A stretch of 64,000 nucleotides of DNA from positions 64,793 to 128,792 of the forward strand of contig OOHL01000002.1 of NCBI GenBank assembly GCA_900321105.1, given 5' to 3'. This stretch comes from an uncultured Pseudomonadota bacterium (lineage in GTDB: Bacteria; Pseudomonadota; Alphaproteobacteria; Rs-D84). The translations under genes were made by a program, and so were the position numbers. A model generated the notes under the pieces. That model had not been told where the DNA came from, did no database searches, and saw nothing but the letters and a program-made list of their open reading frames with translations. How positions within the stretch are numbered: position 1 is the first letter of the stretch; each line of letters starts with the position of its first letter. This document shows, one piece after another, positions 6,937-23,638 of the stretch.

Positions 6937-6963
6937 TTGACTTGTGCGGATTTTAGGTATAAT
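6937..6963 (+). promoter_or_regulatory. tRNA-Asn promoter (TTGACT -35, TATAAT -10)
   Basis: TTGACT at 6937-6942 and TATAAT at 6958-6963, about 15 nt upstream of the tRNA 5' end. Confidence 0.5.
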
Positions 6964-6977
6964 ATAGGCTCTGTTAT

Positions 6978-7053
6978 TCGGGCATAGTTCAGTCGGTAGA
7001 ACAACGGACTGTTAATCCGTATGTCACTGGTTCGAGTCCAGTTGCCCGAGCCA
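6978..7053 (+). tRNA. tRNA-Asn (anticodon GUU)
   Basis: The sequence folds as a cloverleaf. Acceptor TCGGGCA/TGCCCGA, D-arm GTTC..GAAC, anticodon stem ACGGA/TCCGT with loop CTGTTAA, T-loop TTCGAGT, discriminator G, and an encoded CCA. Confidence 0.9.
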
Positions 7054-7340
7054 AGGAATTCCGCCGTAAACCCCGCAGGTTTGCGGCATTTTTCTTTACT
7101 TAACACTTCTATGTTTCACACACCACGGTACATCAAAAATCATCATGAAACAACCTTCTGGCTACACAATAGCTACACAGAATCCGCACTATTAAGATCA
7201 ATCTTGATATCTATTTTGATATCTATATGATATCATACCACAAAGCCGCAACACACCGGAAATCTAACATTTTTTGCACTTTTTACTGGACAAGTGGAAA
7301 AATTTACGGCTTACTACGACGACATTAAAAAGGATCGTCT

Positions 7341-7850
7341 ATGAAATACAAACATTTTGATGATATTGCGCCTAACCATCGCACAGATTTTGTGATGCTG
7401 TATTTTGCCGCATGTCGTTCTTTGCGCGAATTGGAATCGGCCGTACGCCGCACGCAAGATGGTGCATTAACCAATCGCCAGGCGTGGTTACTCCGCCGGT
7501 TGATGTACAAATGTGTCCAAATGGCCGCCCGGCATAAATCCGACCAGCGCAAATTCGAAATTGCAACAATATCTGGTAACAGATCCGGTGCCAAGGCTCT
7601 TTTGGTCACGTTACCCAGCGCAATAACCGATGCGGATATCGGTCAAATGTTGGCCACGGCCATCCAAAATGATGCTAAGCATATCTTCTTCATAACCCCT
7701 ATTCGGCCTAGTATAGCCCAACAACGATCGATACAATGGATGAATGATCATTACAGACATCAAAGTCATTGTCCTGATCCCATCGCAAAAAATAGCCAAT
7801 TAAACCGATTATTCGCTTTCGCCCAGCATGCGGTTTTTGCGTTCGGTTAA
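7341..7850 (+). CDS. Hypothetical protein that is visibly GC-rich relative to its surroundings. It sits at the attL edge of the island.
   Basis: 169-aa ORF. Its codons are rich in G/C (e.g. 'gccgtacgccgcacgcaagatggtgc', 'ggccgcccggcataaatccgaccagcgc'), unlike the flanking AT-rich DNA. It converges on the GIY-YIG gene with a 42-nt 3' overlap. Confidence 0.35.
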   Translation: MKYKHFDDIAPNHRTDFVMLYFAACRSLRELESAVRRTQDGALTNRQAWLLRRLMYKCVQMAARHKSDQRKFEIATISGNRSGAKALLVTLPSAITDADIGQMLATAIQNDAKHIFFITPIRPSIAQQRSIQWMNDHYRHQSHCPDPIAKNSQLNRLFAFAQHAVFAFG

Positions 7851-8474
7851 AATTTCGCCTTTGTATTTAAAGAAATCCGGTCCACGGTATTGTTTCCAAT
7901 TGGTGGCAAAATGTTCTTTCATGATCTTTCTGGCCAATTCAGATAATGAATAATCCGTACCGTTGAATGATACTTTCTTTTTATGCGTGGAATCGTTCAC
8001 TGTGCATTTCAAAACCGTGCCATTTTTTAATGTACGCGCAAATTCTAATGTCGCCCCCGGCTTGATACCAACCGCAGCAAAATCGTATTGTTTTTTGCCT
8101 TTTTTATCTGATGCTATTTGGATATCTTCATCTTTCACCACACCATCTTCACCAAACATGGTATTGTCTGTTTTTATCTCTTCGCCTTTGAATCCCTTGG
8201 CCAGTACTTCCAATAAAGCCACCGCATCTTCCGGGGCAACTCTGAAAAATTCTCTGTTTGATCTTACGCGGCTACCAGCAAAGATTCTGTGTGCATAAGC
8301 TTCATTTTCTTCATAATTATCAACCCTGACGGCGAAATGGCATCTGAACGGCAAAGGAACACCTGTTTTATCAAGTTGCTTCATGCGTTGTTCAACCGTC
8401 TTATCTGTGCGTCCGATTTTGATGTAACCAGGCATCGCATCATTGGTTAAAATATATATAATCCCACGCGCCAT
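7809..8474 (-). CDS. GIY-YIG (T5orf172-like) nuclease-domain protein with a DUF4357-like C-terminal region
   Basis: N-terminal 'GIIYILTN...GYIKIGRT' matches the GIY-YIG/T5orf172 pattern. RBS 'aggag' upstream. 221 aa. Confidence 0.5.
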   Translation of the reverse strand: MARGIIYILTNDAMPGYIKIGRTDKTVEQRMKQLDKTGVPLPFRCHFAVRVDNYEENEAYAHRIFAGSRVRSNREFFRVAPEDAVALLEVLAKGFKGEEIKTDNTMFGEDGVVKDEDIQIASDKKGKKQYDFAAVGIKPGATLEFARTLKNGTVLKCTVNDSTHKKKVSFNGTDYSLSELARKIMKEHFATNWKQYRGPDFFKYKGEILTERKNRMLGESE

Positions 8475-8576
8475 AATAAAAACTCCTATGTTGTCATGAG
8501 AATTATAGCATAAATTTAACCCGAATACAATTTTTAGTAAAATATACCGTATTCATGTTTTTATTGTGCGTTGCAC

Positions 8577-9317
8577 CTATTCATTTCTTGTGATCAGATC
8601 ATAAGCCAAACTGGCTAAGGCCAAATAATGAATAGCAATATTTCTATCCAAAGATTTTGCCAAATCATGAGCTTTTTCGTTTCTAAATTTTTGAATCGCC
8701 ATGTTCAGAAATTTTATTCCCTCAAAAAAATCTTTCTCTACCTCATTAACCGGTTCATGCCCAAATATGCGCATATAGTTTTCTTCGCTAAAGGCCCTAT
8801 GTGCCTGCTCTTCATTTGTTAAATCTTTTAATTTTCGCCTAACTATTTTATAAGCCTCTTCAACAGCATGGAAATAATCTTCTGTCACCAAATATCTTTC
8901 AACATGTTCAAATATAGCAGGATGCAATACAAAATCTATATTTGACGTAATATTTGGTTTTACTATCTCCACTGCTGTTCTTCCAACATCGGGCATATTC
9001 AATAATTTGTTACCTATTTTCTCAATTTGCTCACTAAATTTGATTGTTAACGATTGTCTTAATTCCGCATTTCTAAAAAATGCGGCAAGCTCCAAAATAA
9101 CACGCCCAACGGTTTTGTTATTATCTATATCCCAAAATGCACGCATCCGTTTGGCTTTTGACTCACCGTATTTTTTATATTTTTCATCGTTAATATCTAT
9201 TCCGAAAGCAGCGAATAATTCGCTAAATGTCTTATCTGTAAAATGTAAGACCCACCCTGTATCCATTCTAAGGGCATTTTCTAGATATTCTCTATCCGCT
9301 GGTGACAAATTACTCAT
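8577..9317 (-). CDS. Predicted HEPN-motif protein (Rx4H 'RNEKAH'). Candidate RNase effector, Abi-like.
   Basis: 246 aa. C-terminal 'KFRNEKAHDLAK' fits the HEPN Rx4-6H motif. Its start overlaps the stop of the upstream coiled-coil/2-TM gene (ATGA coupling). Confidence 0.4.
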   Translation of the reverse strand: MSNLSPADREYLENALRMDTGWVLHFTDKTFSELFAAFGIDINDEKYKKYGESKAKRMRAFWDIDNNKTVGRVILELAAFFRNAELRQSLTIKFSEQIEKIGNKLLNMPDVGRTAVEIVKPNITSNIDFVLHPAIFEHVERYLVTEDYFHAVEEAYKIVRRKLKDLTNEEQAHRAFSEENYMRIFGHEPVNEVEKDFFEGIKFLNMAIQKFRNEKAHDLAKSLDRNIAIHYLALASLAYDLITRNE

Positions 9318-10558
9318 TTTTTACTACACACTATCTTGACTATATTTTCTATTAAATTGGAAATCTCATGTGGAATAATAACATTTTTGTCTGGTGCATT
9401 CCCACCAGGTGAAAGCAATGCCTTTGCTAATTCCAATTTCACAACATCTTTTTCTGGGATTTGTGTTTGTTCATCTTTTGTAGATTCACTAATATTATTG
9501 AAATATGGTTCTACAGCCGCCATTTTGATTTCAAGTTCGCGATATTTGTTTTCCTTATCTCTCTGTTTTTTGGATTCATTAGCCATATATACAGCAGGCA
9601 ATAACAACAATGCCGCTATCGGTAATCTACACAATAAAATATTCCAATTTAGATTAGCAAAAGTCTTCGTTTGATCAAAAACAAATATACTATTACACAA
9701 AGCCTCTAGTACGGGCCACACAACCACTAGTGCAAATACCAACATTAAACCGATTGAGCTCCAAAACAATATATTGGCAAAATCTCTCGCATTATCTGCG
9801 TACTTTTTTTGAGAACCAACCACTGCCTCTTTGCCGACAATACCATATATTTTCTCTATTTTATGTTGGATCTGTTCCATATCACTAAGGCGTTTTTCTG
9901 CTCCGTCTTTTAACAACTGGAAATTTGTATTATATAACTTATCTTGTTCAGCTTTTTGCGCCTCAAACTGACTTGAAAAGTCGTCCAATTTATTAGAAAA
10001 ATCATTTAATCTTTTTTCTTGAGCCGCAGAAAATTGTTGCTGTTGCGTAGTTGTTATACCATCCAATTGATTAGACTTGTCTTCTATCTTTCTTTCAAGT
10101 TTTGCGATATTCTGGGTCAAAACTAAAATCTGTTGATTTAATTCAGAATTTTCTTTGCGCAATTTATTCGTTATATTTGAATTACTGTCCTCAAAATCCT
10201 TTACAATTTTATCTAATGCCGCTGAAGTATCACCTTTTTGAACTACCGGTATTTTAGATATAAAATCCAGTAGTTCATTAAGTGTATTATTTATGTGAGT
10301 TATATAAGATGAATTTTTACTTTGATGGAACGAGTTCATATATGACGATAAATTATTCAGATTATTTACAATGCTATTTGAAAAAGATGTACCATATAAC
10401 ACATTTTTTTGAGATTTTACTCTCTGCTCTAAAATTTTTAATATGGCCACCTGCTTGTTATAATATTCAATATAATCATTTTCAGAATAATCCTCTGGAG
10501 ATAAAATAGATTCTATCTCTTTAATTTTATTTGATATCACTTCAATATTATCTGACAT
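9314..10558 (-). CDS. Coiled-coil protein with two C-proximal transmembrane helices. Candidate membrane effector or sensor partner of the HEPN protein.
   Basis: 414 aa. The first ~270 aa are heptad-rich and charged, i.e. coiled coil. Two hydrophobic helices follow ('ILFWSSIGLMLVFALVVVW' and 'ILLCRLPIAALLLLPAVYMA'), then a ~100-aa tail. Confidence 0.4.
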   Translation of the reverse strand: MSDNIEVISNKIKEIESILSPEDYSENDYIEYYNKQVAILKILEQRVKSQKNVLYGTSFSNSIVNNLNNLSSYMNSFHQSKNSSYITHINNTLNELLDFISKIPVVQKGDTSAALDKIVKDFEDSNSNITNKLRKENSELNQQILVLTQNIAKLERKIEDKSNQLDGITTTQQQQFSAAQEKRLNDFSNKLDDFSSQFEAQKAEQDKLYNTNFQLLKDGAEKRLSDMEQIQHKIEKIYGIVGKEAVVGSQKKYADNARDFANILFWSSIGLMLVFALVVVWPVLEALCNSIFVFDQTKTFANLNWNILLCRLPIAALLLLPAVYMANESKKQRDKENKYRELEIKMAAVEPYFNNISESTKDEQTQIPEKDVVKLELAKALLSPGGNAPDKNVIIPHEISNLIENIVKIVCSKK

Positions 10559-10605
10559 AATTATTCTCCAAATTTCAATTGTTTTGATTATAATTTAAAT
10601 CTGTA

Positions 10606-13602
10606 TCATACTTTTTTATCTTTATTCTTTTTGTCTTTTAACTCATTGTAAATGCTTTTCATAAATATGCCCAAGACCTCTTTCTTGATATCAGTATTGT
10701 CTAAAAGCATTGTGAAAAAGTCCTGATTTTGTGTAAATCCTTTCACCAGCGCATCATCAATATGATCATAAAATGGCATACTGAAATTATCTATTGTGTT
10801 AGTTTGGGCACTGGCCACCAAATCTGAATCTTTTTTCAGGATATCACGCACCTGTAATGCAGCATTAAATGCCATATCTTTATCAAAATGCTTACCTGTT
10901 CTGGCATTGACTTCATCAATAATTTCTGACAACCGGCGTTCTTCATCTTCTGTTAAATTGAATGTTTCGGCGGTTGGTAAGACAACCTTTGGATCAGCAG
11001 CAATGTTAACCTTTACCTCTTGCCCCTTTCGTTGTTCAAAATTACTGGCTTGAATCATGCTTTTTAAATCAAAACCATCCCCAGACTTACCTGTTTTAAG
11101 GTATGGCAGTAACCACGTAATAAAGTTGTATTTCTTGTACAAATCTATATCCGACACATCTGTAGACACCTGCAATAAAAATTCATAGAACCGGACAAAT
11201 CTACGCAAACTTACATATAGTTCTCGTTTATCTTTGTCTTGTTTTGCATCAAATGCTCTTTTTGACTTGGATAACAAATTTATGATTTTAATTTCTTTTT
11301 GTTTATCCTTAACTTCCGAAGAATAGAATATGTCGTTAGCCTCTATAGCATCATCTAATGTAAATATGTTATAACTATCGATCTTTTCATCCAATTCGTA
11401 CACAGATTCTGGCGTTACCGTATTACACAGAATTGTTGATGTAAAATATGGTTTAAACGATTTTTCAATATCCTCTATTTTATTAGCAAAATCTAATATA
11501 AACACTTTTTTGTTATATGGCGGACAAATTCTGTTCAATCTGGACAATGTCTGTACAGCCGCAATGTCTCTCAGCTTTTTCAAGACATACATTGCACACA
11601 ATTTATTTTGATCAAATCCGGTCTGATACTTATTTGCGACCAAAAGAACCTGATAGTCACCTTCATCAAACCTTTTTGCTGTTGCTTCTTCACTAAAGCC
11701 ATTTATAGATGATTCTGTAACGAATTTATCTGTATCATTAGAGATACCCAACTGTTTCTCGGTTACCTTTCCAGAAAAAGCGATTAAAGGATGAACATCT
11801 GTATATCCCTTATCTTTCACATAGTCTTGGAAAGCATTATAATATTGCACCGCTTCAACACGAGAACTGGTCACAACCATCGCTTTTGCCCATGGTTGTT
11901 CAGATAACACGATATTTTTAAAGTGCTCTACGATTATTTCAATTCTTTGTGCAATATTTGTCGGATGCAACATAGCAAAACGGGCAATTTTCTTTTTTGC
12001 TTTTGCTGTTTTGAATTTTGGGTCTTCTGCTATCTTTTTGTTTATTTTAAATAATGTCTCATACGGCGTGAAACTTTGCAAAACATCAATAATAAAACCT
12101 TCTTCTATGGCTTGTTTCATAGAATAAAGGTGAAACGCCTCATATCCATTGCCGCTTTGTCTGCCAAACAACGCCAAAGTCGTTGGTTTTGGTGTTGCAG
12201 TAAATGCGAACATAGATACATTCTTTTGTTTGCCTTGTTTTTTTATGGTATTAGCTATCATTGTTTCTGCATCATCACCGTCATCATCATCCGATGCCAA
12301 AGTGGTGGTAACAGCAGCCATATCTTTACCGGACGTTGAAGAGTGCGCTTCGTCAATAATTACTGCGAATGTTTTGTTTTTCAATCCTTTTACCAGATCT
12401 GCAATATACAAAAACTTTTGGATTGTCGTCACGATTATCTTGGTGTTACCTTCCAAAGCAGATTTTAAATCGCCAGAAGAACAATCTTTATCCATAACCT
12501 TGATCAAACCAGCCTTGTGTTCCAGCGCACGAACAGCATCTTGCAATTGTCTATCCACAACCACACGATCTGTAACAATCACAACAGTATCATAGATTTG
12601 TTTGTTTTCAGTGTCGTGTAATGAAGCCAATCTGTGAGCCAACCAAGCAATTGTATATGTTTTTCCCGATCCGGCACTGTGTTGAATCAAGTAATTTTGC
12701 GACGTTTTATTATTAGTCACATCGTCCAAAATCTTTCTGATACAGTCCAGTTGATGATATCTTGGGAATATAATATTTTCTTTTAATTTTTTTGTTTTAT
12801 CATCTACCTTGCGTTCAACGAATGTGAACTTGGTCAGTATTTCTATCAAATGGTCTTTCTGCAACATATCTTCCCATACATAGGATACCGCAGCAATGTC
12901 ATTCGGATTTATTGGGTTACCTTTACCGGCATCTATACCTGTGCCGTTACCCTTGTTAAATGGCAAAAAGAAAGTTGAAGCACCATTCAATTTGGTGGTC
13001 ATATAACATTCTTCCAAATCCATGGCAAAATTTACAACACATCCAGCCTTGAACAAGAATAATCTAGCCTTGGAATCTCTTTCTAATCTGTATTGAGTGA
13101 TTGCGTTCTCATAGTTTTGACCGGCAGTATTACATTTCAGTTCAAAAGATATTATCGCAAAACCATTCAAAAATAATACCAGATCAATACGTTCGCTGTC
13201 TGTTGCCCATACTTCTTCTGCCACAGAGAAAATGTTTTTTGCATACTTTTCATTTAATTCTTTATTATATTCCGTTGCCGGTTTCGTATACATTAACGAC
13301 AAATGAATATTTGATAAATCGATACCCCGTTTCAAAGTTTCTAACAAAGAGCTTTTCTTGGCCGTTATTTGACCATTTATTACACCGATCAGGGTTTCTT
13401 CAAGTTTATTTTTATAAATCTTTTTTAATTGTGCCATTTCATCTGGCTGACTATCATTCAAAAATTTGAACAACAATTCACGATCCATAGCATGCGCACG
13501 ATCAAAGTTTTCATCTGTGCGTTCAATATAACCGTTATGCTTTTTCAGGTAGTCAATAATGTGTCTTTGATACTGTTTTTCTGTTAGAATTTTATTCATC
13601 AC
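10606..13602 (-). CDS. hsdR: Type I restriction enzyme R subunit (HsdR)
   Basis: 998 aa. Walker A 'QHSAGSGKTYT', DEAH box 'IIDEAHSS', and a helicase superfamily 2 layout. Overlaps hsdS by 11 nt. Confidence 0.9.
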   Translation of the reverse strand: MMNKILTEKQYQRHIIDYLKKHNGYIERTDENFDRAHAMDRELLFKFLNDSQPDEMAQLKKIYKNKLEETLIGVINGQITAKKSSLLETLKRGIDLSNIHLSLMYTKPATEYNKELNEKYAKNIFSVAEEVWATDSERIDLVLFLNGFAIISFELKCNTAGQNYENAITQYRLERDSKARLFLFKAGCVVNFAMDLEECYMTTKLNGASTFFLPFNKGNGTGIDAGKGNPINPNDIAAVSYVWEDMLQKDHLIEILTKFTFVERKVDDKTKKLKENIIFPRYHQLDCIRKILDDVTNNKTSQNYLIQHSAGSGKTYTIAWLAHRLASLHDTENKQIYDTVVIVTDRVVVDRQLQDAVRALEHKAGLIKVMDKDCSSGDLKSALEGNTKIIVTTIQKFLYIADLVKGLKNKTFAVIIDEAHSSTSGKDMAAVTTTLASDDDDGDDAETMIANTIKKQGKQKNVSMFAFTATPKPTTLALFGRQSGNGYEAFHLYSMKQAIEEGFIIDVLQSFTPYETLFKINKKIAEDPKFKTAKAKKKIARFAMLHPTNIAQRIEIIVEHFKNIVLSEQPWAKAMVVTSSRVEAVQYYNAFQDYVKDKGYTDVHPLIAFSGKVTEKQLGISNDTDKFVTESSINGFSEEATAKRFDEGDYQVLLVANKYQTGFDQNKLCAMYVLKKLRDIAAVQTLSRLNRICPPYNKKVFILDFANKIEDIEKSFKPYFTSTILCNTVTPESVYELDEKIDSYNIFTLDDAIEANDIFYSSEVKDKQKEIKIINLLSKSKRAFDAKQDKDKRELYVSLRRFVRFYEFLLQVSTDVSDIDLYKKYNFITWLLPYLKTGKSGDGFDLKSMIQASNFEQRKGQEVKVNIAADPKVVLPTAETFNLTEDEERRLSEIIDEVNARTGKHFDKDMAFNAALQVRDILKKDSDLVASAQTNTIDNFSMPFYDHIDDALVKGFTQNQDFFTMLLDNTDIKKEVLGIFMKSIYNELKDKKNKDKKV

Positions 13603-14851
13603 TGACCTCCTTTTTGCCAGTTACATATTCATAAATTAGTGATTTTTTATAATTTTCAACGACTTCTAATTGATGTTTCTTGTCTACTATGATTGATTCT
13701 ATTCCTGCACATTTTTTATCTAGATGTTCAACAATACGGCATTGCTCCTCTAATAACGGTACAATATAGAATAGGTTTTTTATCTTTCCCCAATTGGTAT
13801 CGCACGTTCTTACCCTTATACCGGTGGATAACGCCTCAAAAACACCCTCGTTTGCCATAGTGCGCAGCAAATACATAAAATACCGTTTAGATTGATCTGT
13901 TTCCAGCACATTCAAGACAGGAGATGCTTTGCCCCTAGAATCTGAAATCCCTATAGCTCCCGCAAAACCGTCCATACCATGAATAATTAAATCACCAACG
14001 TCAATACCTTGATAGCCAATCTCTTTCTCTGACATGGTAAAACCGTCTTCTCGTCTATTGGATCGCAATGTTACTTCTCCATCCCTAAAACAAGTAATAA
14101 CCCCGTCATCCTCACGAGTTGGCTTTTGCACATAGGTAAATATATATTTACCTCGTTTTGTTTCCCAATTTGCAGGTATTTTACCAATATATGCAATACC
14201 ACTATCCTTCATTGGCACTTTAGAATTCAAGCCTTTGGTGACCGCTTCGGAAATAACGGATCGTTTGTATTGTTCTAGTTTATCTATTTGTTCTTGAAGA
14301 TCAGCCATCACAGAATCAATCTCACCACACTTACGGTCCAAATAATCAGCAATTTTTTGTTGTTCTTGTAGTGATGGCACCAGCAAACAAATTTCTAACA
14401 ATTCTTTTGCGTTAAGACTACTTCTAACACCGGCATCCCCTAAAGCATTAAATACCTCGTTCATCCACATCATAAGATAATATTTTTCCGCAAATCTTGG
14501 ATTCATATTTTCATTTGCTTTCAATACTATGTATGCAGGCGATACGATCCCTGTATATTTAGAATATCCTACTCGACTTGTAGAAACATTTTGCAAATCT
14601 ATCAATTTGAATACCAACTCATCCTTTTTCAGTATCTGATATGTATCGAATTTGTCTGGTTGTAAACCTTCGTTGTCTTCCTTGGATCTTTTGATCACCC
14701 CTCCAAGAGTCAAGGCCAATCTATCATATTGTTCTACCTTTGCTCCCACAACTTGCTTGTTGTTGGAAAATACGTATTTACCACGTATAACACTCCATGT
14801 ACTTGGAATTTGTCCCACCCAGCCTATACCACTATCTTTCATTTCACGCAT
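13592..14851 (-). CDS. hsdS: Type I restriction-modification specificity subunit (HsdS), two target-recognition domains
   Basis: 419 aa with duplicated conserved coiled regions ('LQEQQKIADYLDRKCGEID' and 'LEEQCRIVEHLDKKCAGIE'). It lies between hsdM and hsdR. Confidence 0.85.
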   Translation of the reverse strand: MREMKDSGIGWVGQIPSTWSVIRGKYVFSNNKQVVGAKVEQYDRLALTLGGVIKRSKEDNEGLQPDKFDTYQILKKDELVFKLIDLQNVSTSRVGYSKYTGIVSPAYIVLKANENMNPRFAEKYYLMMWMNEVFNALGDAGVRSSLNAKELLEICLLVPSLQEQQKIADYLDRKCGEIDSVMADLQEQIDKLEQYKRSVISEAVTKGLNSKVPMKDSGIAYIGKIPANWETKRGKYIFTYVQKPTREDDGVITCFRDGEVTLRSNRREDGFTMSEKEIGYQGIDVGDLIIHGMDGFAGAIGISDSRGKASPVLNVLETDQSKRYFMYLLRTMANEGVFEALSTGIRVRTCDTNWGKIKNLFYIVPLLEEQCRIVEHLDKKCAGIESIIVDKKHQLEVVENYKKSLIYEYVTGKKEVSDE

Positions 14852-14863
14852 ACCAGCCCCCCT

Positions 14864-17017
14864 TTAGAACAACTTATTGATTTTGTTTCGAACTTGGTTT
14901 TCCAAATCTTGAAATTCTTTGGCTAGCTGTTCGCTTGGTTCTGGTTCTTGATATTTATAGAAATATCTGGTGAACGGAATTTCGGCACCAATTTTGATAG
15001 TCTTTTCGCCACGATCATCAGCAAATGTTGCGTTTTCATCACGACCCTCAAAGAATGCTTTGGCATCTGGGATATGTGGTAAAACTTCACGTTCCATATA
15101 GTCATCTATATCTTCATCGTATTTGACAATTTCCGTATCTTTGGTTTCTTTATCATATATGATGTTATCTTTTTTATCCCGTTGAATTTCTGCATTCTTG
15201 TCCATAATTGATAATCCATCGGTCACTTTGGTAATGATTTTTTTATCAAAACCCTGCATTACACCCGTAATATATGGTTCGAATTCTTTTGGTGATAGAA
15301 AAAGCTTATCTGAACAATTATCATTCAGCACCTTCAGAATAGAATCATACAAAGGTTTATTAGCTATAAACTCTCTTTGTTTCTTCTTTTGTTTTTCATC
15401 CAATGGTTCCAAAGAATTTTCATACTCATACATCTTGCCTTCGTCATAAATGGACGACAAACAACCGTTTTGCACCATGTTTTCAATGCGTTCTGGTGTA
15501 ATCGCATAGCTGCGTTGTAATGGTTGCATGATGGTATATTCACGATACATAAATTCTGTATTCTTGTATATTTTCACCAGTTCGTTTTCTTTAAAGTTCG
15601 TGTATAATTCTGTGATGTTCTTTCTGTCTTCTGGTGATAACTCGTTTCTTTTATTACCCAACGCTTTGCGTAGCTTATGATAGATACCGGAAGCATCGAT
15701 CAGTTGAATTTTACCCTTACGTTCTGGTCTTTTATTTTTGGATAATATCCACACATACGTTTGAATTCCGGTATTGTAGAATAAATCTGTTGGCAACGCG
15801 ATAATCGCCTCTATCAGATCTTGTTCCAGTAACCAGCGGCGAATTTGACTTTCACCAGATGCTGTACTACCAGTAAACAAAGGCGACCCATTTTCAATGA
15901 TAGCAGCGCGGCCAATTTTGTCTTGCATCTTGGCAACCGCAGATTGTAAGAATATCATTTGTGAATCACCACCAGATGGCAACCCGGCCCCCCAACGACC
16001 ATAATCTCCTTTGGCATGCTCTTTTCTTACTGCATCTTCCTGACCATCTTTGGCATCTTTACCGGACCAAGGCGTTCCAAAGGGTGGATTTTCAATCAAG
16101 AAACGCATCTGTGTGTTTTCAAAACAATCTTCCTTGAATGTGTCTGCGTGACGAAAATTACGTGCATCTTGCCCCTTGATTAACATTTCTGCCAAACCAA
16201 TAGCATAAGATGGTCCCATAAATTCTTGACCAAACAAACGAACATCCGCAGATGGGTTCAAGTATTTCAAATAAGAAAATGCTGTAGATAACATACCGCC
16301 AGTTCCCGCAGCCTGATCACACACAGTTATAACTTTATGGTCTTCAAAAACATCATCACAACCTTCTGCTGTCAAAATAGAAACCAAACACTTGATGATA
16401 TCACGCCCCGTGTAATATTGCCCTGCATCCACATTTTGGAAGAATCTGCCTATCAGATTTTCAAAGATGTACCCCATTTTGATAGAATCATAAGTAGCAG
16501 GGTTCAAATCCAATTCAGAAAAAGCCTTCATGACCGTAAACAAACAACCACCCTTGTCCATGGTTTGAATATGATTAAACAATTCCAATTGAGACATAAT
16601 ATCTCTTACGTTTGCAGAAAAACCATTGATATAACTTTTGAAATTTTCAGCCAAATTGTCGGTATCATTCAACAATTCTGCAAGATCGTAATGACTTGTA
16701 TTATAAAATTGAAAACCAGCGACATTTTCTAACATTTGGGCTGGTAAATCTGGATTGGATTCGTATGCTTTAATAACCGCTTCTTTGGTTGGAACCAGTG
16801 CACACTCCAATCTGCGTAAGATGGTCATTGGAATAATCACATCACCATATTTATCTGGCATGTATGTTCCACGCAATTTATTAGCAATCGACCAAATAAA
16901 ATTCGCCTCTGCTGTCACATCAACCGGATTATCATCCCACAACAAATCAAGTTTATTATTCAAAACCATCTTTTTTCTCCATTCGGCATAGTTTTTTTGC
17001 TTCTTGGTAGGGATCAT
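14864..17017 (-). CDS. hsdM: Type I restriction-modification N6-adenine DNA methyltransferase subunit (HsdM), long form
   Basis: Catalytic 'IENPPFGTPW' (NPPF) and AdoMet motif 'VCDQAAGTGGML'. 717 aa. Confidence 0.9.
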   Translation of the reverse strand: MIPTKKQKNYAEWRKKMVLNNKLDLLWDDNPVDVTAEANFIWSIANKLRGTYMPDKYGDVIIPMTILRRLECALVPTKEAVIKAYESNPDLPAQMLENVAGFQFYNTSHYDLAELLNDTDNLAENFKSYINGFSANVRDIMSQLELFNHIQTMDKGGCLFTVMKAFSELDLNPATYDSIKMGYIFENLIGRFFQNVDAGQYYTGRDIIKCLVSILTAEGCDDVFEDHKVITVCDQAAGTGGMLSTAFSYLKYLNPSADVRLFGQEFMGPSYAIGLAEMLIKGQDARNFRHADTFKEDCFENTQMRFLIENPPFGTPWSGKDAKDGQEDAVRKEHAKGDYGRWGAGLPSGGDSQMIFLQSAVAKMQDKIGRAAIIENGSPLFTGSTASGESQIRRWLLEQDLIEAIIALPTDLFYNTGIQTYVWILSKNKRPERKGKIQLIDASGIYHKLRKALGNKRNELSPEDRKNITELYTNFKENELVKIYKNTEFMYREYTIMQPLQRSYAITPERIENMVQNGCLSSIYDEGKMYEYENSLEPLDEKQKKKQREFIANKPLYDSILKVLNDNCSDKLFLSPKEFEPYITGVMQGFDKKIITKVTDGLSIMDKNAEIQRDKKDNIIYDKETKDTEIVKYDEDIDDYMEREVLPHIPDAKAFFEGRDENATFADDRGEKTIKIGAEIPFTRYFYKYQEPEPSEQLAKEFQDLENQVRNKINKLF

Positions 17018-17071
17018 AGCAGATTTGTTATGATTTTTTCCATAGAAAAATTATTGTTTTTGGCTTTGTTT

Positions 17072-17965
17072 TTATTTGTCGTTTCCGTATATAAAACGTT
17101 CTGCATTGTGTCTTTGACTTTCGTTAAATACCTTTACCAGCGCATCTGGACAACTGCCAGCTTCACCTGTTACAGAACACCTGAAAGCATCACTTATAAC
17201 AACCGGTAATCCTGCCATCATCATTTTTATCAATCTTATTTTAGCTTCTTCTGCCATTACTTTTGCCGTTAAAACAAGTATAAGTTTCGATGATATTGGT
17301 AAAAATATTTGGGAATGCGGCAAATCAAAACCGCTAGTTTTTCCATTGTCTTCCATAAAAGCCAAATGATTATTTAGCACAGTTGGATTATCCGAAGTAA
17401 TGAATATTTGTTTGCCAGTAGCTTTGAACAATACCCATTCCATTGATGCTATGGCATCACGAATAACATTATCATGCTCTATATCGTACAAAGAATTGTA
17501 ACTCATAACCCGCGCAAAATTATCGTCGATGTTAACATCATCACAATAAAAGCTTTTCTTTATATTCCCATCTGGTCCATGCAAATCAAACAAATGCAGA
17601 TTGTTAGTTTGCAAAATGTTTTTTACATGATTTACGTATTTTCTGGTTCTATAAAATTGGCACAAAATAAAATCTTCAACAACTCGTTTATCGTTGTCTT
17701 GCAACCAACCAATAGATTCTGTTTTAACAATAGTATCAATTATCGGGGCTGTTTTGTCTTCTAAACCTGCAAATTGCTTTTCTAGTGAAATATCACCATT
17801 CATGGTCTTCAAATCATAAAAACGGTTTTCTTGAGCAACATTGATTATGTTGGTTTTATATTTATTTTTGGTTTTCAAATCGGTTACCGCAATAGTTTTG
17901 CCATCGGCACAAAAGTGTTTTAACAAAAATCTCGGCACATAATGCTGGCTTTTTGTTTCTGGCAT
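17072..17965 (-). CDS. DUF4238-family protein
   Basis: N-terminal 'QHYVPRFLLKHF' matches the characteristic DUF4238 start motif. 297 aa. Co-directional with and immediately upstream of hsdM. Confidence 0.55.
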   Translation of the reverse strand: MPETKSQHYVPRFLLKHFCADGKTIAVTDLKTKNKYKTNIINVAQENRFYDLKTMNGDISLEKQFAGLEDKTAPIIDTIVKTESIGWLQDNDKRVVEDFILCQFYRTRKYVNHVKNILQTNNLHLFDLHGPDGNIKKSFYCDDVNIDDNFARVMSYNSLYDIEHDNVIRDAIASMEWVLFKATGKQIFITSDNPTVLNNHLAFMEDNGKTSGFDLPHSQIFLPISSKLILVLTAKVMAEEAKIRLIKMMMAGLPVVISDAFRCSVTGEAGSCPDALVKVFNESQRHNAERFIYGNDK

Positions 17966-18336
17966 TACGCAACCCCAGTTCTATACACCAAGGATTTATA
18001 CAATAGATGCTTGATAGCACGTTCCCTAACTTCGCCTTTTAATTCGCGCAAAGCAACATATGCGGGGATTCTGTCTGTTATGTATTGTAATTCTTTTCTG
18101 GGATTGTGGTTTACTGGTTCGTTTGGCGATGGTGGATTGATACCAAGCATTTCATGCAATTCGTCAATTTCGTTATGATATCTTTGCAAACTGATATTGA
18201 ATTGTCTTTGCACACGCAAATCATCGTTGCTTTTCAATGCATTGTAGTTCCGTTTTGCTATTTCCAGATCCACAGAACAATTGCCAATAGCACCCGTTTT
18301 GTTTAGTAAATCAAAAACAAACTCAAAATCGTCCAT
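17965..18336 (-). CDS. Hypothetical 123-aa protein, translationally coupled to the DUF4238 gene
   Basis: The ORF stop overlaps the DUF4238 start (shared nt 17965). It has no recognisable motifs. Confidence 0.3.
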   Translation of the reverse strand: MDDFEFVFDLLNKTGAIGNCSVDLEIAKRNYNALKSNDDLRVQRQFNISLQRYHNEIDELHEMLGINPPSPNEPVNHNPRKELQYITDRIPAYVALRELKGEVRERAIKHLLYKSLVYRTGVA

Positions 18337-18340
18337 AGCG

Positions 18341-18991
18341 TCATCCTTTTATGCTTTCGGTCAATTTGTAGATGCCAGCAAATACCGTCGCCGTATATTC
18401 AGGCTCCTCACAAAACGAAATAGCCCATTGTTTAGCCTGCTTCATGGCATTATTATAGCCGTTTTCCATTGTGGCAAAATCAAAATATGGGCCTTCATGT
18501 GGTGTTTTTTCATGGCTATAACCAGGCATCGTTGGGGCCCGTAATTTGCTTTGATTTGTTTTTGCGCTTGTTGATATCTTTGTTATACCACAACAAAGTA
18601 AGCCGAATGTTTCTATACTTGGTGCATTAAATGCGATATTAACAGGCATATATTTTTTCTTTAACCCCTGAACAGAATGATTAAACGCTTGAACTTTTGT
18701 GTATGCTTGATGAACCTTTGCTGGTTTATCATTATCAAAAACAATCCATAGTTCGCTTTTCCCATAGGTCTCTTGTTTTTTAGAAAACTCTATTGCATAT
18801 TGTGCTAAACTTAAAGGGTCAGTATCAGATTTCTTATAAAACCAAACAATTGTGCAATTATATTTTTTACACAATTGTTTGATATAAGTCGCTTCTGTAC
18901 CGCAGTCACCACCCTCGCAGGCAAGATATATTGTCTTTTTTGGTACTACTCGTGATCTAGAACAACAAATTATTTTATTATTTCTTGCCAT
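18341..18991 (-). CDS. RloB-like Toprim-domain protein (AbiLii-like)
   Basis: Toprim-like 'IYLACEGGDCGTE' glutamate and 'IVFDNDKP' DxD motifs. 216 aa. It overlaps the upstream AAA ATPase gene by 22 nt. Confidence 0.55.
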   Translation of the reverse strand: MARNNKIICCSRSRVVPKKTIYLACEGGDCGTEATYIKQLCKKYNCTIVWFYKKSDTDPLSLAQYAIEFSKKQETYGKSELWIVFDNDKPAKVHQAYTKVQAFNHSVQGLKKKYMPVNIAFNAPSIETFGLLCCGITKISTSAKTNQSKLRAPTMPGYSHEKTPHEGPYFDFATMENGYNNAMKQAKQWAISFCEEPEYTATVFAGIYKLTESIKG

Positions 18992-20241
18992 ACTTGTTCG
19001 CCTCCTAAGAAAGGAACTGCACCATACCTACCATTGATGTAATCCTTCTCCAGATCTTTATCGAAACGTGGATTTATATCCGTCAACGGATACAATCTGC
19101 TGGAACCATCGCTGTCTTTTTCTGTAAACCAAATTTCATCAACTCTCCAAATATCATGAGACAATAACAGCGTGTTATGCAGCACCGCTATGATTTGCCC
19201 CCCCATAGGATTATTTAATAAACTTTTCAACAGAACCTTTGATAAAAACGGATGGAATAAATTATCAAACTCGTCTAACAACAACAATTTGCTGCCTTCT
19301 GTTTTCTTGAATGAATACAACATGAATCCCAGTTTAAATAACTTTATCGTCCCAGCAGATTCTCTGTTTGTTGGGAATTGTGCGTCACCATGGAACATCA
19401 CCAATTGCCGGCATACCACGCGACCGTTTTCTAACGAAAAGAAATAATAATCTTCGTCTTCTTGGCGACACAACACTTCACCACGAGTCAATGCTGCTAA
19501 GTCCAGTCTCATAAGTGTTGTTTGTGGCACATCCAATTTCTTGAAATCCACATCGGTTATTCCGAAATCCGCTTGAACAAGTAAATCAAGCAAAAACTTT
19601 TTAAATTCTGGGAACTTAAAATTGTGGTACACATATAACGGATTTATTTGTGTTTTTGGATCAAAATAACCTATGCTGCGCAAAAAGTGAATTGCGTTCA
19701 ATATGTGTTGTTTATTTTTAACATCATTATCAAAAATACCATCCATTATCATTTTGGATAACAATGTTCTATTTTTGGAAAAACTGCAGTTTTTATAAAA
19801 ATTATCTGTAAATAACTTTCCAAACTCTTTTTCAACCCCCGTTCTTTTAAAGATCAAATTTTTCTTGTTTTTTTCCGCAAAATACAATTCCTCATTGGAT
19901 ATCTCATCCTTTGAAATTGAAATTTTATAATTATACTTGAACCCGTTTGATATAAAATTTACCTCAAACTCAACAGGCGCATCATTGTTCAACATAAAAC
20001 GATTGGAATTGATAAATGCAACAATGTCCCTGTCGCCAATAGCAGTAAACTCAGACAACATGGTAATTGTGTGTAACAAATTGGTTTTACCGCTAGCATT
20101 GGCACCATAAATCCCTACGCCAGAAAGTAAATTGCCCCCGATTATGTGTTCCTTGTGCTTCTGGATAGATGTTTTTTCCATAGACAATGTGATTTTATCT
20201 TTGAACGAAGAAAAATTAGAAACAGAAAAATCTATAAGCAT
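18970..20241 (-). CDS. AAA_21/ABC-type ATPase (AbiLi / PARIS AriA-like)
   Basis: Walker A 'GANASGKTNLLH' and Walker B/D-loop 'LLLLDEFDNLFHP'. 423 aa. Strong RBS 'aaggag' upstream. Confidence 0.6.
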   Translation of the reverse strand: MLIDFSVSNFSSFKDKITLSMEKTSIQKHKEHIIGGNLLSGVGIYGANASGKTNLLHTITMLSEFTAIGDRDIVAFINSNRFMLNNDAPVEFEVNFISNGFKYNYKISISKDEISNEELYFAEKNKKNLIFKRTGVEKEFGKLFTDNFYKNCSFSKNRTLLSKMIMDGIFDNDVKNKQHILNAIHFLRSIGYFDPKTQINPLYVYHNFKFPEFKKFLLDLLVQADFGITDVDFKKLDVPQTTLMRLDLAALTRGEVLCRQEDEDYYFFSLENGRVVCRQLVMFHGDAQFPTNRESAGTIKLFKLGFMLYSFKKTEGSKLLLLDEFDNLFHPFLSKVLLKSLLNNPMGGQIIAVLHNTLLLSHDIWRVDEIWFTEKDSDGSSRLYPLTDINPRFDKDLEKDYINGRYGAVPFLGGEQVWQEIIK

Positions 20242-20669
20242 ATTTTACTCCTTGTTTGGCACAAAAATATCATTTTTTGACCAAAAAGTCAAGATAAATG
20301 TGAAAAAATCACATTTATTTGTAAAAAACGATGGTTTTTGATCATTCTTCATAATTTTTCACCATTTTGTTGTTCGCCGATCTGTGTCCCAATCGGCATT
20401 GTTTGGCAGTGTGCTTTTACTCCTTTACATGACCACCATGCATGAAAAATTTTCATTTGTAAAGTCTTTATTTTCTGCGGATTTTAGCGTTGATACATGA
20501 TGATACACTATGATACATTTAACCCAAAAAATGAGAAATTTTTGTATTTAAACATCTATTGAAACATTTAAATGCGCTTTGATACAAATTGATATAAATT
20601 GGCACATACGACCACTTTTCAAAGAAATTACTTTTGAAATTCCTCCAAAAATGAAAAAATGCCAAAATG

Positions 20670-20763
20670 TGTCCGCACCAGGTCCGCACCCTAGGTCCGC
20701 ACTTAACACATTGAAAATACGATTCTTTTTTCTGCAGGGTGCGGACCGCGGACCGTTTTTTTA
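20670..20763. terminator. GC-rich imperfect inverted repeat. Three tandem GGTCCGCAC units face GTGCGGACC units, and T/A runs flank both sides, so it is a candidate bidirectional terminator or protein-binding site.
   Basis: Left arm 'gtccgcaccaggtccgcaccctaggtccgcac', right arm 'agggtgcggaccgcggaccg', then TTTTTTT. It sits in a 0.9-kb AT-rich non-coding gap. Confidence 0.45.
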
Positions 20764-21246
20764 GTTCTGTGTGTAGCGAGGTGGCACGCTCGCCGTTACC
20801 CTCGATAAAAAACATCTGTCACAGAACCTATTTTATTTTTTACCGCGTATTTCCGCCATTTTTTTCAATTGTGGCTTAAGGCTGAGGAACATCCACGATC
20901 ATGACATTTGCCAAGAAAAACATCTTGATATTTTATAATACATCCAGATTGATTGAAATATCTATGAACACTTTTAAAAACATTATTGACATTTCGATAC
21001 TTGTACGTAATTTCTCAACAAGTTTTCAACAATTTTTTTTGCATTTCTTCTTTCTCTTCCTTTTAATTTTATTTTTATTTATATATATTTCTTCTTTCTC
21101 TTCTTCTACTGATGATTTCTATCGTGATTTCTGGTATGAAATTTGTTCTGATTTCAATATTGATTTCAGGTGTTTTTTTAAGAATAAAAAAGTGCTGTCG
21201 ATGCGATTAAACCATCGCAAAATATCAAAAATATGTTTTCAAAATA

Positions 21247-22443
21247 CTATCCGCATATTGCGTTCGCAACGTTATTGATTGCGCGATAAGTGCTACTATC
21301 CATGATGTGCGTGTACCCTTCGGTGGTGGTTATACGACTGTGGCCTGCCGCTTCCTTCATGGCGGCCATATTTTCGCCTATATTCGCCCCCATACTGATG
21401 AAAGAATGCCGCAGATCGTGTATTCGCATGTGCGGAAGTTTTGCGTATTCAAGCGCCCATTCAAATGGTTTACGTATGTTGTTTATTGGTCTTGTGATAT
21501 TACCCACACCAGGAAATACGTATCTACTACCCAGCGCAAGAGCTTCATCCAGCGCAGTTTGTAAATATGGTATCACTGCATCGGATAATTTTACATCTCT
21601 GGCACCAGTCTTACTGTCTTTCAAATGTATAACTTTATGCATAAGGACAAGCTCGTCTACTTCCAGGCCTGTTATTTCAGATGCACGACACCCGGTTAAC
21701 ATTAAAACGCGTAGTGCATTAAACAAACGAGGATGCATTTTGGATACTTCTGGTCCAACGTCCAGCGCATGAGACAATGCCCTGTATCCTTCTTGATCCA
21801 GAATTTGTGGTTTATAAACTTGATTTGAACCCTTACGGACGTATTTACATGGGTTTGTATTGCGATTTACATATTTATACATTTCGCACCAGTCCCAGAA
21901 ATTTGAAAATAACGACAATGCTTTATTTGCGGTTGAAAACGATATCTTTTTCACCCATTTAGCATAGGCGTCCATTACATGCTTTTCTTCTATCTGGCGC
22001 ATGTATAATTTATCAAACATGGGCCCCAGGTATAATCGATATTCGCCCCAATTGGAATCTTGCGTTCTTGGTTTCTTGTAAACCTTGGCATATTTTTCCA
22101 TGTATTGGGGAAATAGATCTTCGAATTTTTCACCAAGATCTTCCTGTTGTTCTGTTTTTTCACGACGCGGGTCTTGCCCATTGGCAATTTGACGCCGCAA
22201 ATTCCATGCCATTTCACGAATGTCTTTAATTGAATAATCGTTATATCGCCCGATATAAAGATTGCATTTCTTGTTATCGATTTTACATCCCAAGAAAAAT
22301 CTGATTGCGCGCGTTGATGCGGAATACCGCAGAAACAATCCGGGGATTGTTCCATCGCTTACCTGTAAATTTACATCAGAACGCAACAAATGTATCCAAG
22401 TATCGCGAAACGGCTTCGTATAGCATTTCCATTGCTTTTCCAT
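21247..22443 (-). CDS. int: P4-type tyrosine integrase (DUF4102 arm-binding N-terminus plus catalytic domain)
   Basis: Catalytic 'LMLTGCRASE' (Arg), 'HDLRHSF' (HxxR) and 'TTTEGYTHI' (Tyr). The likely start is the ATG at 22443, preceded by RBS 'aaaggag'. The ORF is open to 22542. Confidence 0.9.
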   Translation of the reverse strand: MEKQWKCYTKPFRDTWIHLLRSDVNLQVSDGTIPGLFLRYSASTRAIRFFLGCKIDNKKCNLYIGRYNDYSIKDIREMAWNLRRQIANGQDPRREKTEQQEDLGEKFEDLFPQYMEKYAKVYKKPRTQDSNWGEYRLYLGPMFDKLYMRQIEEKHVMDAYAKWVKKISFSTANKALSLFSNFWDWCEMYKYVNRNTNPCKYVRKGSNQVYKPQILDQEGYRALSHALDVGPEVSKMHPRLFNALRVLMLTGCRASEITGLEVDELVLMHKVIHLKDSKTGARDVKLSDAVIPYLQTALDEALALGSRYVFPGVGNITRPINNIRKPFEWALEYAKLPHMRIHDLRHSFISMGANIGENMAAMKEAAGHSRITTTEGYTHIMDSSTYRAINNVANAICG

Positions 22444-22508
22444 ATGTGTAACTCCTTTGGTTGCGACTACACAGTGCAACACACAAATAAAATAGCAAGT
22501 AAAAACAA

Positions 22509-22763
22509 CTATTTTTTGCCGATTCTTTGTTGTTCCAACCATTGATTCACATCGGATTTGCGATATCGCACCATTTTGCCGATTTTAAAGTATTCCGGTC
22601 CAGTACCCAGCGCACGATATTGACTTAATGCCGAAATGGATGATTCAAGATATTGAGCCAACTGTCTTGGCGTCATAAGTTTATCTTTTTCTCCGTTTTC
22701 GTTTATAAAATAACAACTTGTATCTCTCTCCATCCCCCAATTTTTTTTGAACTCTTGTTCCAT
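22509..22763 (-). CDS. alpA: AlpA-family helix-turn-helix regulator or excisionase-like protein
   Basis: 'MTPRQLAQYLESSISALSQYRALGTGPEYFKIGKMVRYRKSDVNQWLEQQ' fits the AlpA/MerR-like HTH pattern. It lies immediately upstream of int. Confidence 0.65.
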   Translation of the reverse strand: MEQEFKKNWGMERDTSCYFINENGEKDKLMTPRQLAQYLESSISALSQYRALGTGPEYFKIGKMVRYRKSDVNQWLEQQRIGKK

Positions 22764-23157
22764 GTTTTTCTCCTTTGGGTTTTGATGGTTTTTGTCCGGT
22801 TTAAAAATGTCTCAAGATATCGTCAAATATCGCAACATTTTTTAATATCCGTACATATAATTTATAGCACATTAAAAAACAAAAATCTTCTAAAAACCGC
22901 AGAAAATTGTACTTTTTGTAGTAACAAAAATGTATCATAATGTATCAAAAGCATAAAAAAGACTAGGTTAGCAACATTTATCAACATTTGTCCAATTTAC
23001 GCATCGGCGTCACCCGACAAAAAAATGACTTTTTTGCCAGATGTAATTTTGATAGAAAAAGCATATATTTTTCTATAAAAAACTGATAATAATTTTTTAT
23101 GAAATTCCGTGCACCAATTTTTATGGGGTGCTTTTTTGTTTGCTTTGGATACATTTA

Positions 23158-23237
23158 GCTACACGACGACACAATTTTTTTGCTACACAGGGGCTACACA
23201 ATAAAAATTTGCTACACGGTGGATACACGGCTACACA
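23158..23237. repeat. Array of five GCTACAC(A) direct repeats. Candidate integrase arm-type or AlpA binding sites.
   Basis: GCTACAC at 23158, 23182, 23193, 23211 and 23229, spaced 11-24 bp apart, about 75-150 bp upstream of the right att core. Confidence 0.5.
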
Positions 23238-23307
23238 ATTCGCAAGCCCACTATTTCTGCACCACACACGATGTTCACAAAAAATTTTTCTGAATTTTTT
23301 GGACCTG

Positions 23308-23324
23308 CTGTTAATCCGTGTGTC
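23308..23324 (+). repeat. attR-type core. A 17-nt copy of the tRNA-Asn anticodon stem-loop, CTGTTAATCCGTgTGTC.
   Basis: 16 of 17 nt match tRNA-Asn positions 7009-7025. The flanking sequence then diverges. Confidence 0.6.
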
Positions 23325-23638
23325 GGTTGAGCAGATGGGATGGCAATGGTGTCATTTTGACGATTTTGTCTGATTCCTGCTGGGTTGACACATTTTCTGT
23401 TCGAAGACGCTGCATAAGGTCTGAAATATTTTTACCCAGGCTAAGTAAATCTAAGACATCTCTTGTACGACCCATGTTCAACCCTCTGAGCCAGATTGGC
23501 CTAAAGTCTTTGGAAGATATGATTTAAAAGACTTTTTCATTGAAAATCTAACATCTTTATCTTCTATTTCGCAGTTCGAGGAAACACCCCAAAGGATTTT
23601 AGATTTATCTTCTATCCTGCCAGTTATATTTCAATTTT

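Follow-up and report, generated by a model that had tools for sequence, protein, structure and literature searches.

The tRNA-Asn gene and three copies of its anticodon loop

We analyzed a 64,000-nucleotide stretch of contig OOHL01000002.1 (hereafter the window, to which all coordinates without a locus handle refer), which comes from an uncultured alphaproteobacterium and carries an intact tRNA-Asn(GTT) gene. Beginning at the anticodon loop of this gene is a 16.3-kb island of defense genes, which we call E2, and a smaller element, E1, lies upstream. The original prediction had described E2 as an integrative defense island inserted in the anticodon loop. Comparator loci from other genomes, metagenomes, and viral contigs bear handles such as L007. 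The features of the tRNA and its displaced fragments are as follows.

3031-3120, plus strand: displaced copy A, a tRNA-Asn promoter (TTGACT-17-TATTAT, 3049-3077; promoter scan) with the tRNA 5' half, 88.9% identical to 6919-7008 over 90 nucleotides (nt)
3121-3127, plus strand: core copy C1 (CTGTTAA), where the 5' half meets the left end "x" of E1; tRNA similarity stops exactly there
6919-6977, plus strand: copy A', the promoter and leader of the functional tRNA-Asn (TTGACT-17-TAATAT, 6937-6965) and right end of E1; its -10/leader region differs from that of copy A
6978-7053, plus strand: tRNA-Asn(GTT), intact, the left attachment site (attL) of E2 (ARAGORN; Rfam tRNA, 74 bits)
7009-7015, plus strand: core copy C2, the overlap region O, identical with the anticodon loop CTGTTAA and bracketed by both homology breakpoints
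7016-7025, plus strand: TCCGTATGTC, candidate core-type integrase half-site C', spanning the 3' strand of the anticodon stem and the variable loop (motif enrichment)
7063-7087, plus strand: island-borne terminator of the tRNA, a 10-bp stem followed by a T run, kept in L108 and L110
23308-23324, plus strand: core copy C3 of the right attachment site (attR), composed of O (CTGTTAA) and C' (TCCGTGTGTC); the homology shared with the L007 and L094 islands stops at 23324

The 17-mer CTGTTAATCCGTATGTC at 7009-7025, which extends from the anticodon loop over the 3' side of its stem and the variable loop, reappears as CTGTTAATCCGTGTGTC (= CTGTTAATCCGTgTGTC) at 23308-23324 with 16 of 17 positions matching. 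When up to three mismatches were permitted, these were the only two matches in the 64 kb, with 0.12 expected, and none of 100 shuffled sequences yielded two. The repeat on which the original prediction was founded is thus real, and the chance match that it had named as an alternative is contradicted by these counts. The duplicated junction that it had placed to the left also exists, at 3031-3127, with identity only up to CTGTTAA (3121-3127). The last base shared by C1 and C2 is the end of CTGTTAA, beyond which the DNA at C1 is unrelated, and the first base shared by C2 and C3 is the start of CTGTTAA. Because the two breakpoints bracket CTGTTAA, they form the pattern expected of site-specific exchange inside a 7-bp overlap, and the alignment of the three junctions agrees with the crossover in the anticodon loop that had been proposed. 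Rfam identified four tRNAs and nothing else in the window and the right junction, and no second tRNA-Asn was found inside E2 by ARAGORN or by a search for further copies.

Integrase and predicted attachment site

The genes and sites that could mediate recombination lie at both ends of the island.

7161-7179, plus strand: P' arm, two arm-type sites GCTACACA at +152 and +163 from the core (motif scan; L110 alike)
21247-22443, minus strand: tyrosine integrase, 398 amino acids (aa) from M34 (Pfam; called as 398 aa in L001); the mechanical open reading frame (ORF) extends to 22542
22509-22763, minus strand: HTH_17 excisionase-type regulator, the "AlpA-like" gene (Pfam HTH_17, 1.6e-8; phrog_66, excisionase and regulator, 7e-8)
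23158-23237, plus strand: P arm, six arm-type sites (five GCTACAC, one GATACAC) at -150, -126, -115, -97, -86, and -78 from the core (motif scan)

The integrase has the P4-type (DUF4102) domain layout foreseen by the original prediction, with Arm-DNA-bind_3 (PF13356, 6.7e-10), SAM-like core-binding (PF14659, 3.8e-4), and catalytic Phage_integrase (PF00589, 5.8e-18) domains. Its catalytic residues (R, H-x-x-R, H, and Y) are intact in an alignment with XerA and XerD. The neighboring gene had been named AlpA; its product did not match the Pfam AlpA model (Phage_AlpA) at E ≤ 0.01, HTH_17 alone being reported, and judging from its family matches it is best called a putative excisionase-type HTH_17 protein.

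Seven of the eight GCTACAC-type matches in the window fall at the island ends, where 1.4 would be expected. The register of the P arm is identical in the six islands that we compared (window, L007, L088, L091, L092, and L094; integrases 88 to 97% identical), and P' arm sites occur at +152 and +163 in two islands, those of the window and L110. With arm-type sites on both sides of the core, the attachment site of the element (attP) is predicted to be of the lambda style. The viral contig L145, whose integrase is 52% identical to that of the window, has the order int, alpA, P arm, CTGTTAA, full tRNA 3' half, terminator, and start of the left-end gene, which is the arrangement predicted from joining the right end of the window island to its left end. 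The tRNA 3' half in L145 is identical to that of the window tRNA, and in four viral contigs identity to tRNA-Asn runs from exactly CTGTTAA through the full 3' half.

The 10 nt that follow the overlap belong to a recurring motif. TCYGTRTGTC has six copies in the window against 0.39 expected, five of them in junction regions, and L145 carries nine TCCGTRTGTC-type copies within 700 nt. Three perfect palindromes of the form GACAYACRGA-N7-TCCGTRTGTC lie in the arms of L145 (7187-7213, 7532-7558, and 7839-7865) and share the geometry of the anticodon stem and its 7-nt loop. TCCGTRTGTC is most likely a core-type integrase half-site. This role would explain why 17 to 20 nt are retained at the right end of every relative: the conserved 17-nt block would consist of the 7-nt overlap and a 10-nt candidate half-site, in agreement with the 19 bp that suffice for ICEAfe1 (see below). 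A related palindrome with a 4-nt spacer is present at 6721-6744.

Extent of E2 and proposed mode of integration

E2 occupies window 7016-23307 and measures 16,299 bp from core to core, with boundaries supported by homology breaks in L007, L094, and L108. In the sister-species locus L007 and the metagenome locus L094, homology to the window island stops exactly at 23324. The right end of all six islands consists of the P arm, CTGTTAA, and TCCRTRTKTC(A), irrespective of the DNA beyond. In L110 and L145, the left end of the island is accompanied by the tRNA 3' half, terminator, and arm sites; L110 has the same tRNA and an E2-type left end and lacks the 3.9-kb E1 upstream.

We considered whether the 17-nt match might be coincidental and the locus an ordinary variable defense locus beside a tRNA. 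Such a reading would suit the shortness of the clean identity and the fact that the full 3' half does not directly follow it. However, the block is kept in six related islands with differing flanks, the homology breakpoints coincide with it, and the arm sites are registered on it. Together with the shuffled sequences, this conservation and register refute coincidence, to which we assign a negligible probability.

We regard it as well supported, and highly probable, that E2 is a 16.3-kb tyrosine-integrase island at tRNA-Asn with the 7-bp overlap CTGTTAA. In the mechanism we propose, E2 would belong to an island family of uncultured gut or rumen alphaproteobacteria ("Candidatus Enterousia"-like). 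The tyrosine integrase, probably aided by the neighboring HTH_17 protein, would recombine a lambda-style attP with tRNA-Asn, and strand exchange would take place inside the 7-bp anticodon loop CTGTTAA. The attP would present six GCTACAC-type arm sites on the integrase side, and on the other side the tRNA 3' half, its terminator, and two arm sites. Because the attP carries the 3' half and terminator, integration would rebuild a working tRNA at the left end of the island.

To the right of C3 lie housekeeping genes encoding Tag, YjbR, and a hydrolase. By its Tag protein (92% identical), the nearest genome is a "Candidatus Enterousia sp." metagenome-assembled genome, and the host is a low-GC gut or rumen alphaproteobacterium. 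Chromosomal flanks vary among genomes, the ASCH-Tag gap being 80 nt in L007 and about 26 kb in the window genome.

A displaced and interrupted tRNA 3' half at the right border

Integration by this route would leave the resident 3' half of the tRNA displaced to the right of E2, where we found the following.

23325-23560, plus strand: disrupted remainder of the displaced 3' half (aligned with L088 and L091)
23325-23334, plus strand: candidate T-arm remnant GGTT-GAG-CAG (marginal, p about 0.045)
23335-23485: insert Y-alpha, about 150 nt, with a gene fragment on the minus strand
23486-23493, plus strand: CTGAGCCA, with the trailer beyond (aligns with L088 and L091)

A displaced tDNA fragment thus starts at the anticodon loop in direct orientation, and its remainder is interrupted by about 150 nt. 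In L091, CGAGCCA, the tRNA terminus, lies about 150 nt to the right of the block, and the trailer is 92% identical to that of L145 (E = 6e-14); the window and L088 align at the same place. On its minus strand, Y-alpha preserves the conserved C-terminal part of a gene; this fragment has no Pfam match, and tblastn found it at these junctions only. A displaced 3' half directly after C3 is absent from every relative compared, and neither the window nor 103 loci yielded the tRNA 3' half a second time; an uninterrupted copy is not seen because the insert interrupts the fragment. Since the same broken fragment borders differing islands, it is a resident right border of the hotspot. The resident 3' half has been broken by the insert of about 150 nt, and with this half broken, excision of E2 would leave no functional tRNA-Asn at the locus.

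We rejected an interpretation of the right flank as a decayed T-arm hairpin, as neither L088 nor L092 retains the hairpin of L091. In the beta flank (L007 13519-13950, and L094), which resembles the DNA ahead of the C1 promoter (window 2976-3030), a decayed anticodon arm (ACGGAtcaaTCCGTATGTCAC) and arm-like sites (TCTACAtattTGCTACACA) precede the housekeeping genes; this flank reads as a putative stack of old junction remnants.

Element E1 and the array upstream of tRNA-Asn

E1 occupies the interval between C1 and copy A'.

3128-6918: E1, element upstream of the tRNA, 3,888 bp core to core, absent from L110
3174-3189: E1 hairpin, with GATATC at 3219 and 3231 and motif copies at 3304 (minus strand) and 6721/6735
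3353-4078, minus strand: E1 ORF
4409-5278, plus strand: E1 ORF
5335-5772, minus strand: E1 ORF
5766-6620, minus strand: E1 DUF3800 gene

E1 fits the class of elements that displace a 5' fragment, in that the displaced 5' copy (3031-3127 versus 6919-7015) is in direct orientation; no integrase was found among its four ORFs (Pfam and PHROGs). In L110, a C1-type promoter and 5' half are joined directly to an E2-type 3' half, and this promoter/leader variant drives the intact tRNA. Because L110 lacks E1 and has the C1-type promoter directly on its tRNA, E1 supplies the promoter and 5' half now used in the window. A C1-type junction also occurs in L233, where the element-side start, (A)ATTACCG(G)AAGTT, is conserved and lies beside a divergent E1-like gene. 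The 241-aa protein of E1 has a single distant homolog, which led to this second C1-type junction and not to the other end of the element. Otherwise near-identical contigs differ by indels of 16 nt and 44 nt in the E1 intergenic region at 4078-4409.

To the left of C1 lies a Gabija system, GajA and GajB (window 107-2730; L104 7915-11590), in which the GajA N terminus extends beyond the window; GajA is 622 aa long in L104. These genes are preceded by a shortened copy of the island left-end module (L104 7915-8017) and followed by TCTACAC at -163 and -152 from C1, a distance like that of the distal P-arm site. The segment is probably what remains of a sibling island whose integrase was lost; at the same position, L110 has a full int-alpA module, 55% identical. 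This module is part of a larger element upstream of tRNA-Asn (L110 1-9400), with an integrase 55% identical to that of E2, an HTH_17 protein, a ParB-methyltransferase, and DUF6362/DUF6291. In L110, TCTACAC at -152 and GCTACAC at +153/+164 flank the whole tRNA-Asn symmetrically, and the upstream element could have an attP containing the complete tRNA gene.

E2 is one unit of an array in which E1 gives the promoter and 5' half and the Gabija remnant lies further to the left. The island and its site at tRNA-Asn stand as originally predicted; the picture of a lone insertion is incomplete.

Between C1 and C3, the intact tRNA is equipped with a promoter variant and a terminator of its own, which raises another possibility: the mobile unit could be the whole 20.2 kb from C1 to C3 (3128-23307), having no more than a short core in common with the host tRNA, destroying that tRNA when it integrates, and bringing a complete tRNA-Asn and promoter (6919-7090) to replace it. 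Replacement tRNAs are documented in mycobacteriophages (PMC10865867), and both outer junctions are dead ends, C1 being a 5' half on non-tRNA DNA and C3 retaining 17 nt of clean identity. However, L110 links the C1-type promoter straight to the E2-type 3' half with E1 absent, the arm sites at +152/+163 lie to the right of C2 and not of C1, and the attP of L145 itself contains the 3' half. In addition, the C1-type junction in L233 adjoins a different, larger element, and the displaced 3' end is found to the right of C3. We consider the 20.2-kb unit improbable and favor E2 as the unit that integrated at C2.

Mobility of E2 and dependence of the host on its sequence

Several observations weigh against integration of E2 as proposed here. 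Neither 80 genome loci nor the 11 contigs that match the flanking Tag protein exactly contained an empty site: the former are too far removed for such a comparison, none having tRNA-Asn near Tag, and the latter all belong to one strain and carry the island. An excised circle of this lineage was not found, and a search of viral contigs for the attP-junction pattern was negative. L145 may represent an excised form or, alternatively, a tandem junction. The T-arm remnant at 23325-23334 barely beats chance (p about 0.045), and the assignment of TCCGTRTGTC or GCTACAC to a particular binding protein is one that we infer. Finally, the origin of E1 and the history of the array appear not to be uniquely reconstructable from the sequences at hand, with native tandem tRNA copies or whole-tRNA elements among the conceivable sources. 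Searches of viral contigs for alpha-type and beta-type truncated junctions gave no matches, and a protein search of viral contigs for integrase relatives found none.

That the integrated state alone is seen, identical across samples, is also what would be expected if E2 were a fossil that integrated as described and is now immobile, passing by vertical descent only. Excision would join the 5' half to a broken 3' half, and sibling islands in L108 and L111 have lost the tRNA junction, both of which would fit such a fossil. Against this, the integrase is full length with its catalytic residues intact, and all eight arm sites, O, and the C' block are in register across relatives with different cargo and flanks. 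The preservation of this register despite differing cargo and flanks argues for ongoing selection on the recombination apparatus and for island exchange at a constant right border. We consider a fossil the less likely state, though it retains appreciable weight, and E2 may still be mobile.

The junctions permit a more far-reaching possibility, which we advance tentatively and with more doubt than confidence: the working tRNA-Asn may derive wholly from mobile DNA, with promoter and 5' half from E1 and 3' half and terminator from E2, while both resident halves are dead ends. If this were the sole tRNA-Asn gene, E2 could be swapped but never lost, and the tRNA would act as a ratchet that keeps a defense island in place while its cargo exchanges. 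Whether the host depends on the island hinges on the tRNA-Asn copy number of the genome; a testable consequence is that the host may depend on island-borne tRNA sequence.

Defense cargo of E2

The remaining genes and features of the island are listed below.

7206-7234: three GATATC palindromic repeats ahead of the left-end gene; E1 has a similar pair at its left end
7341-7850, plus strand: conserved left-end gene of the island family, 153-169 aa (158 homologs; alignment)
7809-8474, minus strand: T5orf172/PDC-S57 candidate defense gene (Pfam 7e-16; PADLOC 6e-62)
8577-9317, minus strand: Hypoth_Ymh protein (Pfam)
9314-10558, minus strand: 414-aa coiled-coil protein with two transmembrane (TM)-like hydrophobic segments (weak ZorA-like PADLOC match)
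10606-13602, minus strand: HsdR (Pfam HSDR_N/ResIII/T1R_D3)
13592-14851, minus strand: HsdS (Pfam Methylase_S)
14864-17017, minus strand: HsdM (Pfam N6_Mtase/HsdM_N)
17072-17965, minus strand: DUF4238 protein (Pfam 8e-44; PADLOC DUF4238-Pers 1e-8)
17965-18336, minus strand: 123-aa ORF
18341-18991, minus strand: AbiLii/RloB (PADLOC AbiLii 2.2e-8; Pfam)
18970-20241, minus strand: AbiLi ATPase (PADLOC AbiLi 2.2e-73; Pfam)
20519-20815, minus strand: 98-aa small ORF beside int, within conserved region 20428-21278
20901-21278, plus strand: 125-aa small ORF with one TM-like segment, within conserved region 20428-21278

The cargo appears to be devoted to anti-phage defense, with a type I restriction-modification (R-M) system, AbiL, PDC-S57, DUF4238, and the Ymh/2-TM pair as its putative components. 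The type I R-M system and DUF4238 gene of the original prediction were both recovered by Pfam, with HsdR, HsdM, and HsdS together at 10606-17017. Of its AbiL/PARIS-like ATPase and Toprim genes, the AbiL part holds, as AbiLi and AbiLii are adjacent and their genes overlap. We rejected PARIS (AriA/AriB): the AriA match (4e-18) is far below that of AbiLi, and the partner matches AbiLii/RloB only. What had been read as a HEPN/2-TM pair corresponds to the Hypoth_Ymh protein and the 414-aa protein, the latter having the two hydrophobic segments, and the supposed GIY-YIG gene was identified as T5orf172/PDC-S57 by Pfam and PADLOC.

The protein encoded at the left end has a nearly invariant, helical N terminus of about 70 aa (MKYxHFDDIxPNHRTDFVMLYFAACRSLRELxAAIRR...) and one of two alternative C-terminal domains. 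It matched no Pfam or PHROG family, and its AlphaFold model is of low confidence (predicted local distance difference test [pLDDT], 62.5; predicted template modeling score [pTM], 0.41). The small ORFs of region 20428-21278, blocks of which are kept in L090-L092 and L101-L103, likewise had no Pfam or PHROG family matches. Relatives hold other R-M, OLD, PIN, and Abi genes in the same island frame. Several also have 2 to 8.5 kb of extra cargo between the excisionase gene and the P arm (window equivalent 23081-23104), which in L007 comprises DUF488, a 113-aa ORF, and an L,D-transpeptidase/Tlde1-like gene. In such relatives the int module is not terminal, and this interval forms a second cargo slot.

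Relation to known integrative elements

Sublocations of integration within tRNA genes were sorted into classes, the anticodon loop included, by Williams in 2002 (PMC100330). Although the original prediction called an anticodon-loop site unusual, the 3,919 islands mapped by Islander include 2,083 with an anticodon-centered attP and 1,836 at the T-stem/junction, as well as 125 tandem arrays and 159 of the rare 5'-fragment islands (PMC4383910), and the four viral contigs described above are alike in their use of tRNA-Asn. This kind of integration is common and well described, and its mechanism is textbook material that would not surprise a specialist. E2 resembles class A, anticodon-centered islands and prophages in its tyrosine integrase, a crossover in the 7-nt loop flanked by a symmetric stem, restoration of the gene by a 3' half that the island carries, a direct-orientation displaced fragment, and occurrence in tandem arrays. 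It differs in representing a new lineage in uncultured alphaproteobacteria, in the interruption of the displaced fragment, and in that the tRNA here also bears an upstream element of the rare 5'-fragment type. What we consider worth recording is the precise attP anatomy, a functional tRNA from two elements, and the broken displaced half.

Integration of ICEAfe1 in Acidithiobacillus ferrooxidans is quoted as needing no more than 19 bp around the anticodon loop (10.1101/2020.11.02.365908). This minimal target of about 19 bp matches the 17- to 20-nt block conserved here; ICEAfe1 differs in being a conjugative element with another tRNA and another host. The asn-tDNA islands of Enterobacteriaceae (Yersinia high-pathogenicity island, ICEKp, and GIE492; PMC4891358) share the tRNA-Asn hotspot, P4-type arm-binding integrases, and the use of one tDNA by several families. 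In contrast to E2, the host attachment site (attB) of these islands reportedly begins at the T-loop or 3' end and not in the anticodon loop (10.1101/2020.11.02.365908), and they carry virulence cargo rather than defense.

In the tRNA-dependent lysogeny of mycobacteriophages, as here, an essential tRNA depends on element-borne sequence (PMC10865867). There, however, the tRNA is not rebuilt and a separate whole tRNA gene compensates (PMC10865867), whereas E2 rebuilds the tRNA at attL. We rejected tRNA-dependent lysogeny for E2, given this rebuilt tRNA and the lack of a second tRNA-Asn in the island; dependence on E2 sequence would arise because the displaced half decayed.

P4-like satellites and similar integrase-bearing elements carry defense islands in which an integrase/excisionase module is combined with swappable anti-phage cargo. 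Compared with these, no satellite hallmark genes were identified in E2, and its conserved gene outside recombination encodes an uncharacterized 153-aa protein. The locus offers a delimited attP/attB system for its integrase family, characterized by a 7-bp overlap, a candidate core site of 10 nt, and eight arm sites whose register is conserved. This system could serve as an integration tool, and it aids the mapping of defense-gene traffic in these bacteria.

Further elements at tRNA-Asn and a repeat at tRNA-Lys

A 3.2-kb HTH_61-DUF4357 element is present in L088 (reverse-complement 2272-5482) and L108 (7541-9713), the two copies being 88% identical. It ends in ...gagttatNtCGAGCCA (...CGAGCCA), and GAGCCA repeats bracket it in L088. 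From these ends, the element is apparently a second family, one that uses the extreme 3' end of the same tRNA-Asn. A single tRNA gene hosts three or more kinds of element, distributed over two sublocations.

Elsewhere in the window, the tRNA-Lys gene (30346-30421) is associated with a perfect 31-nt direct repeat, GAGTCCCTGTGCCTCCACCAGAAAAATTAAA, at 30402-30432 and 30575-30605. The copies are 173 nt apart, and the first covers the 3' end of the tRNA; the pair looks like a scar or mini-remnant of integration at the T-loop or 3' end of tRNA-Lys.

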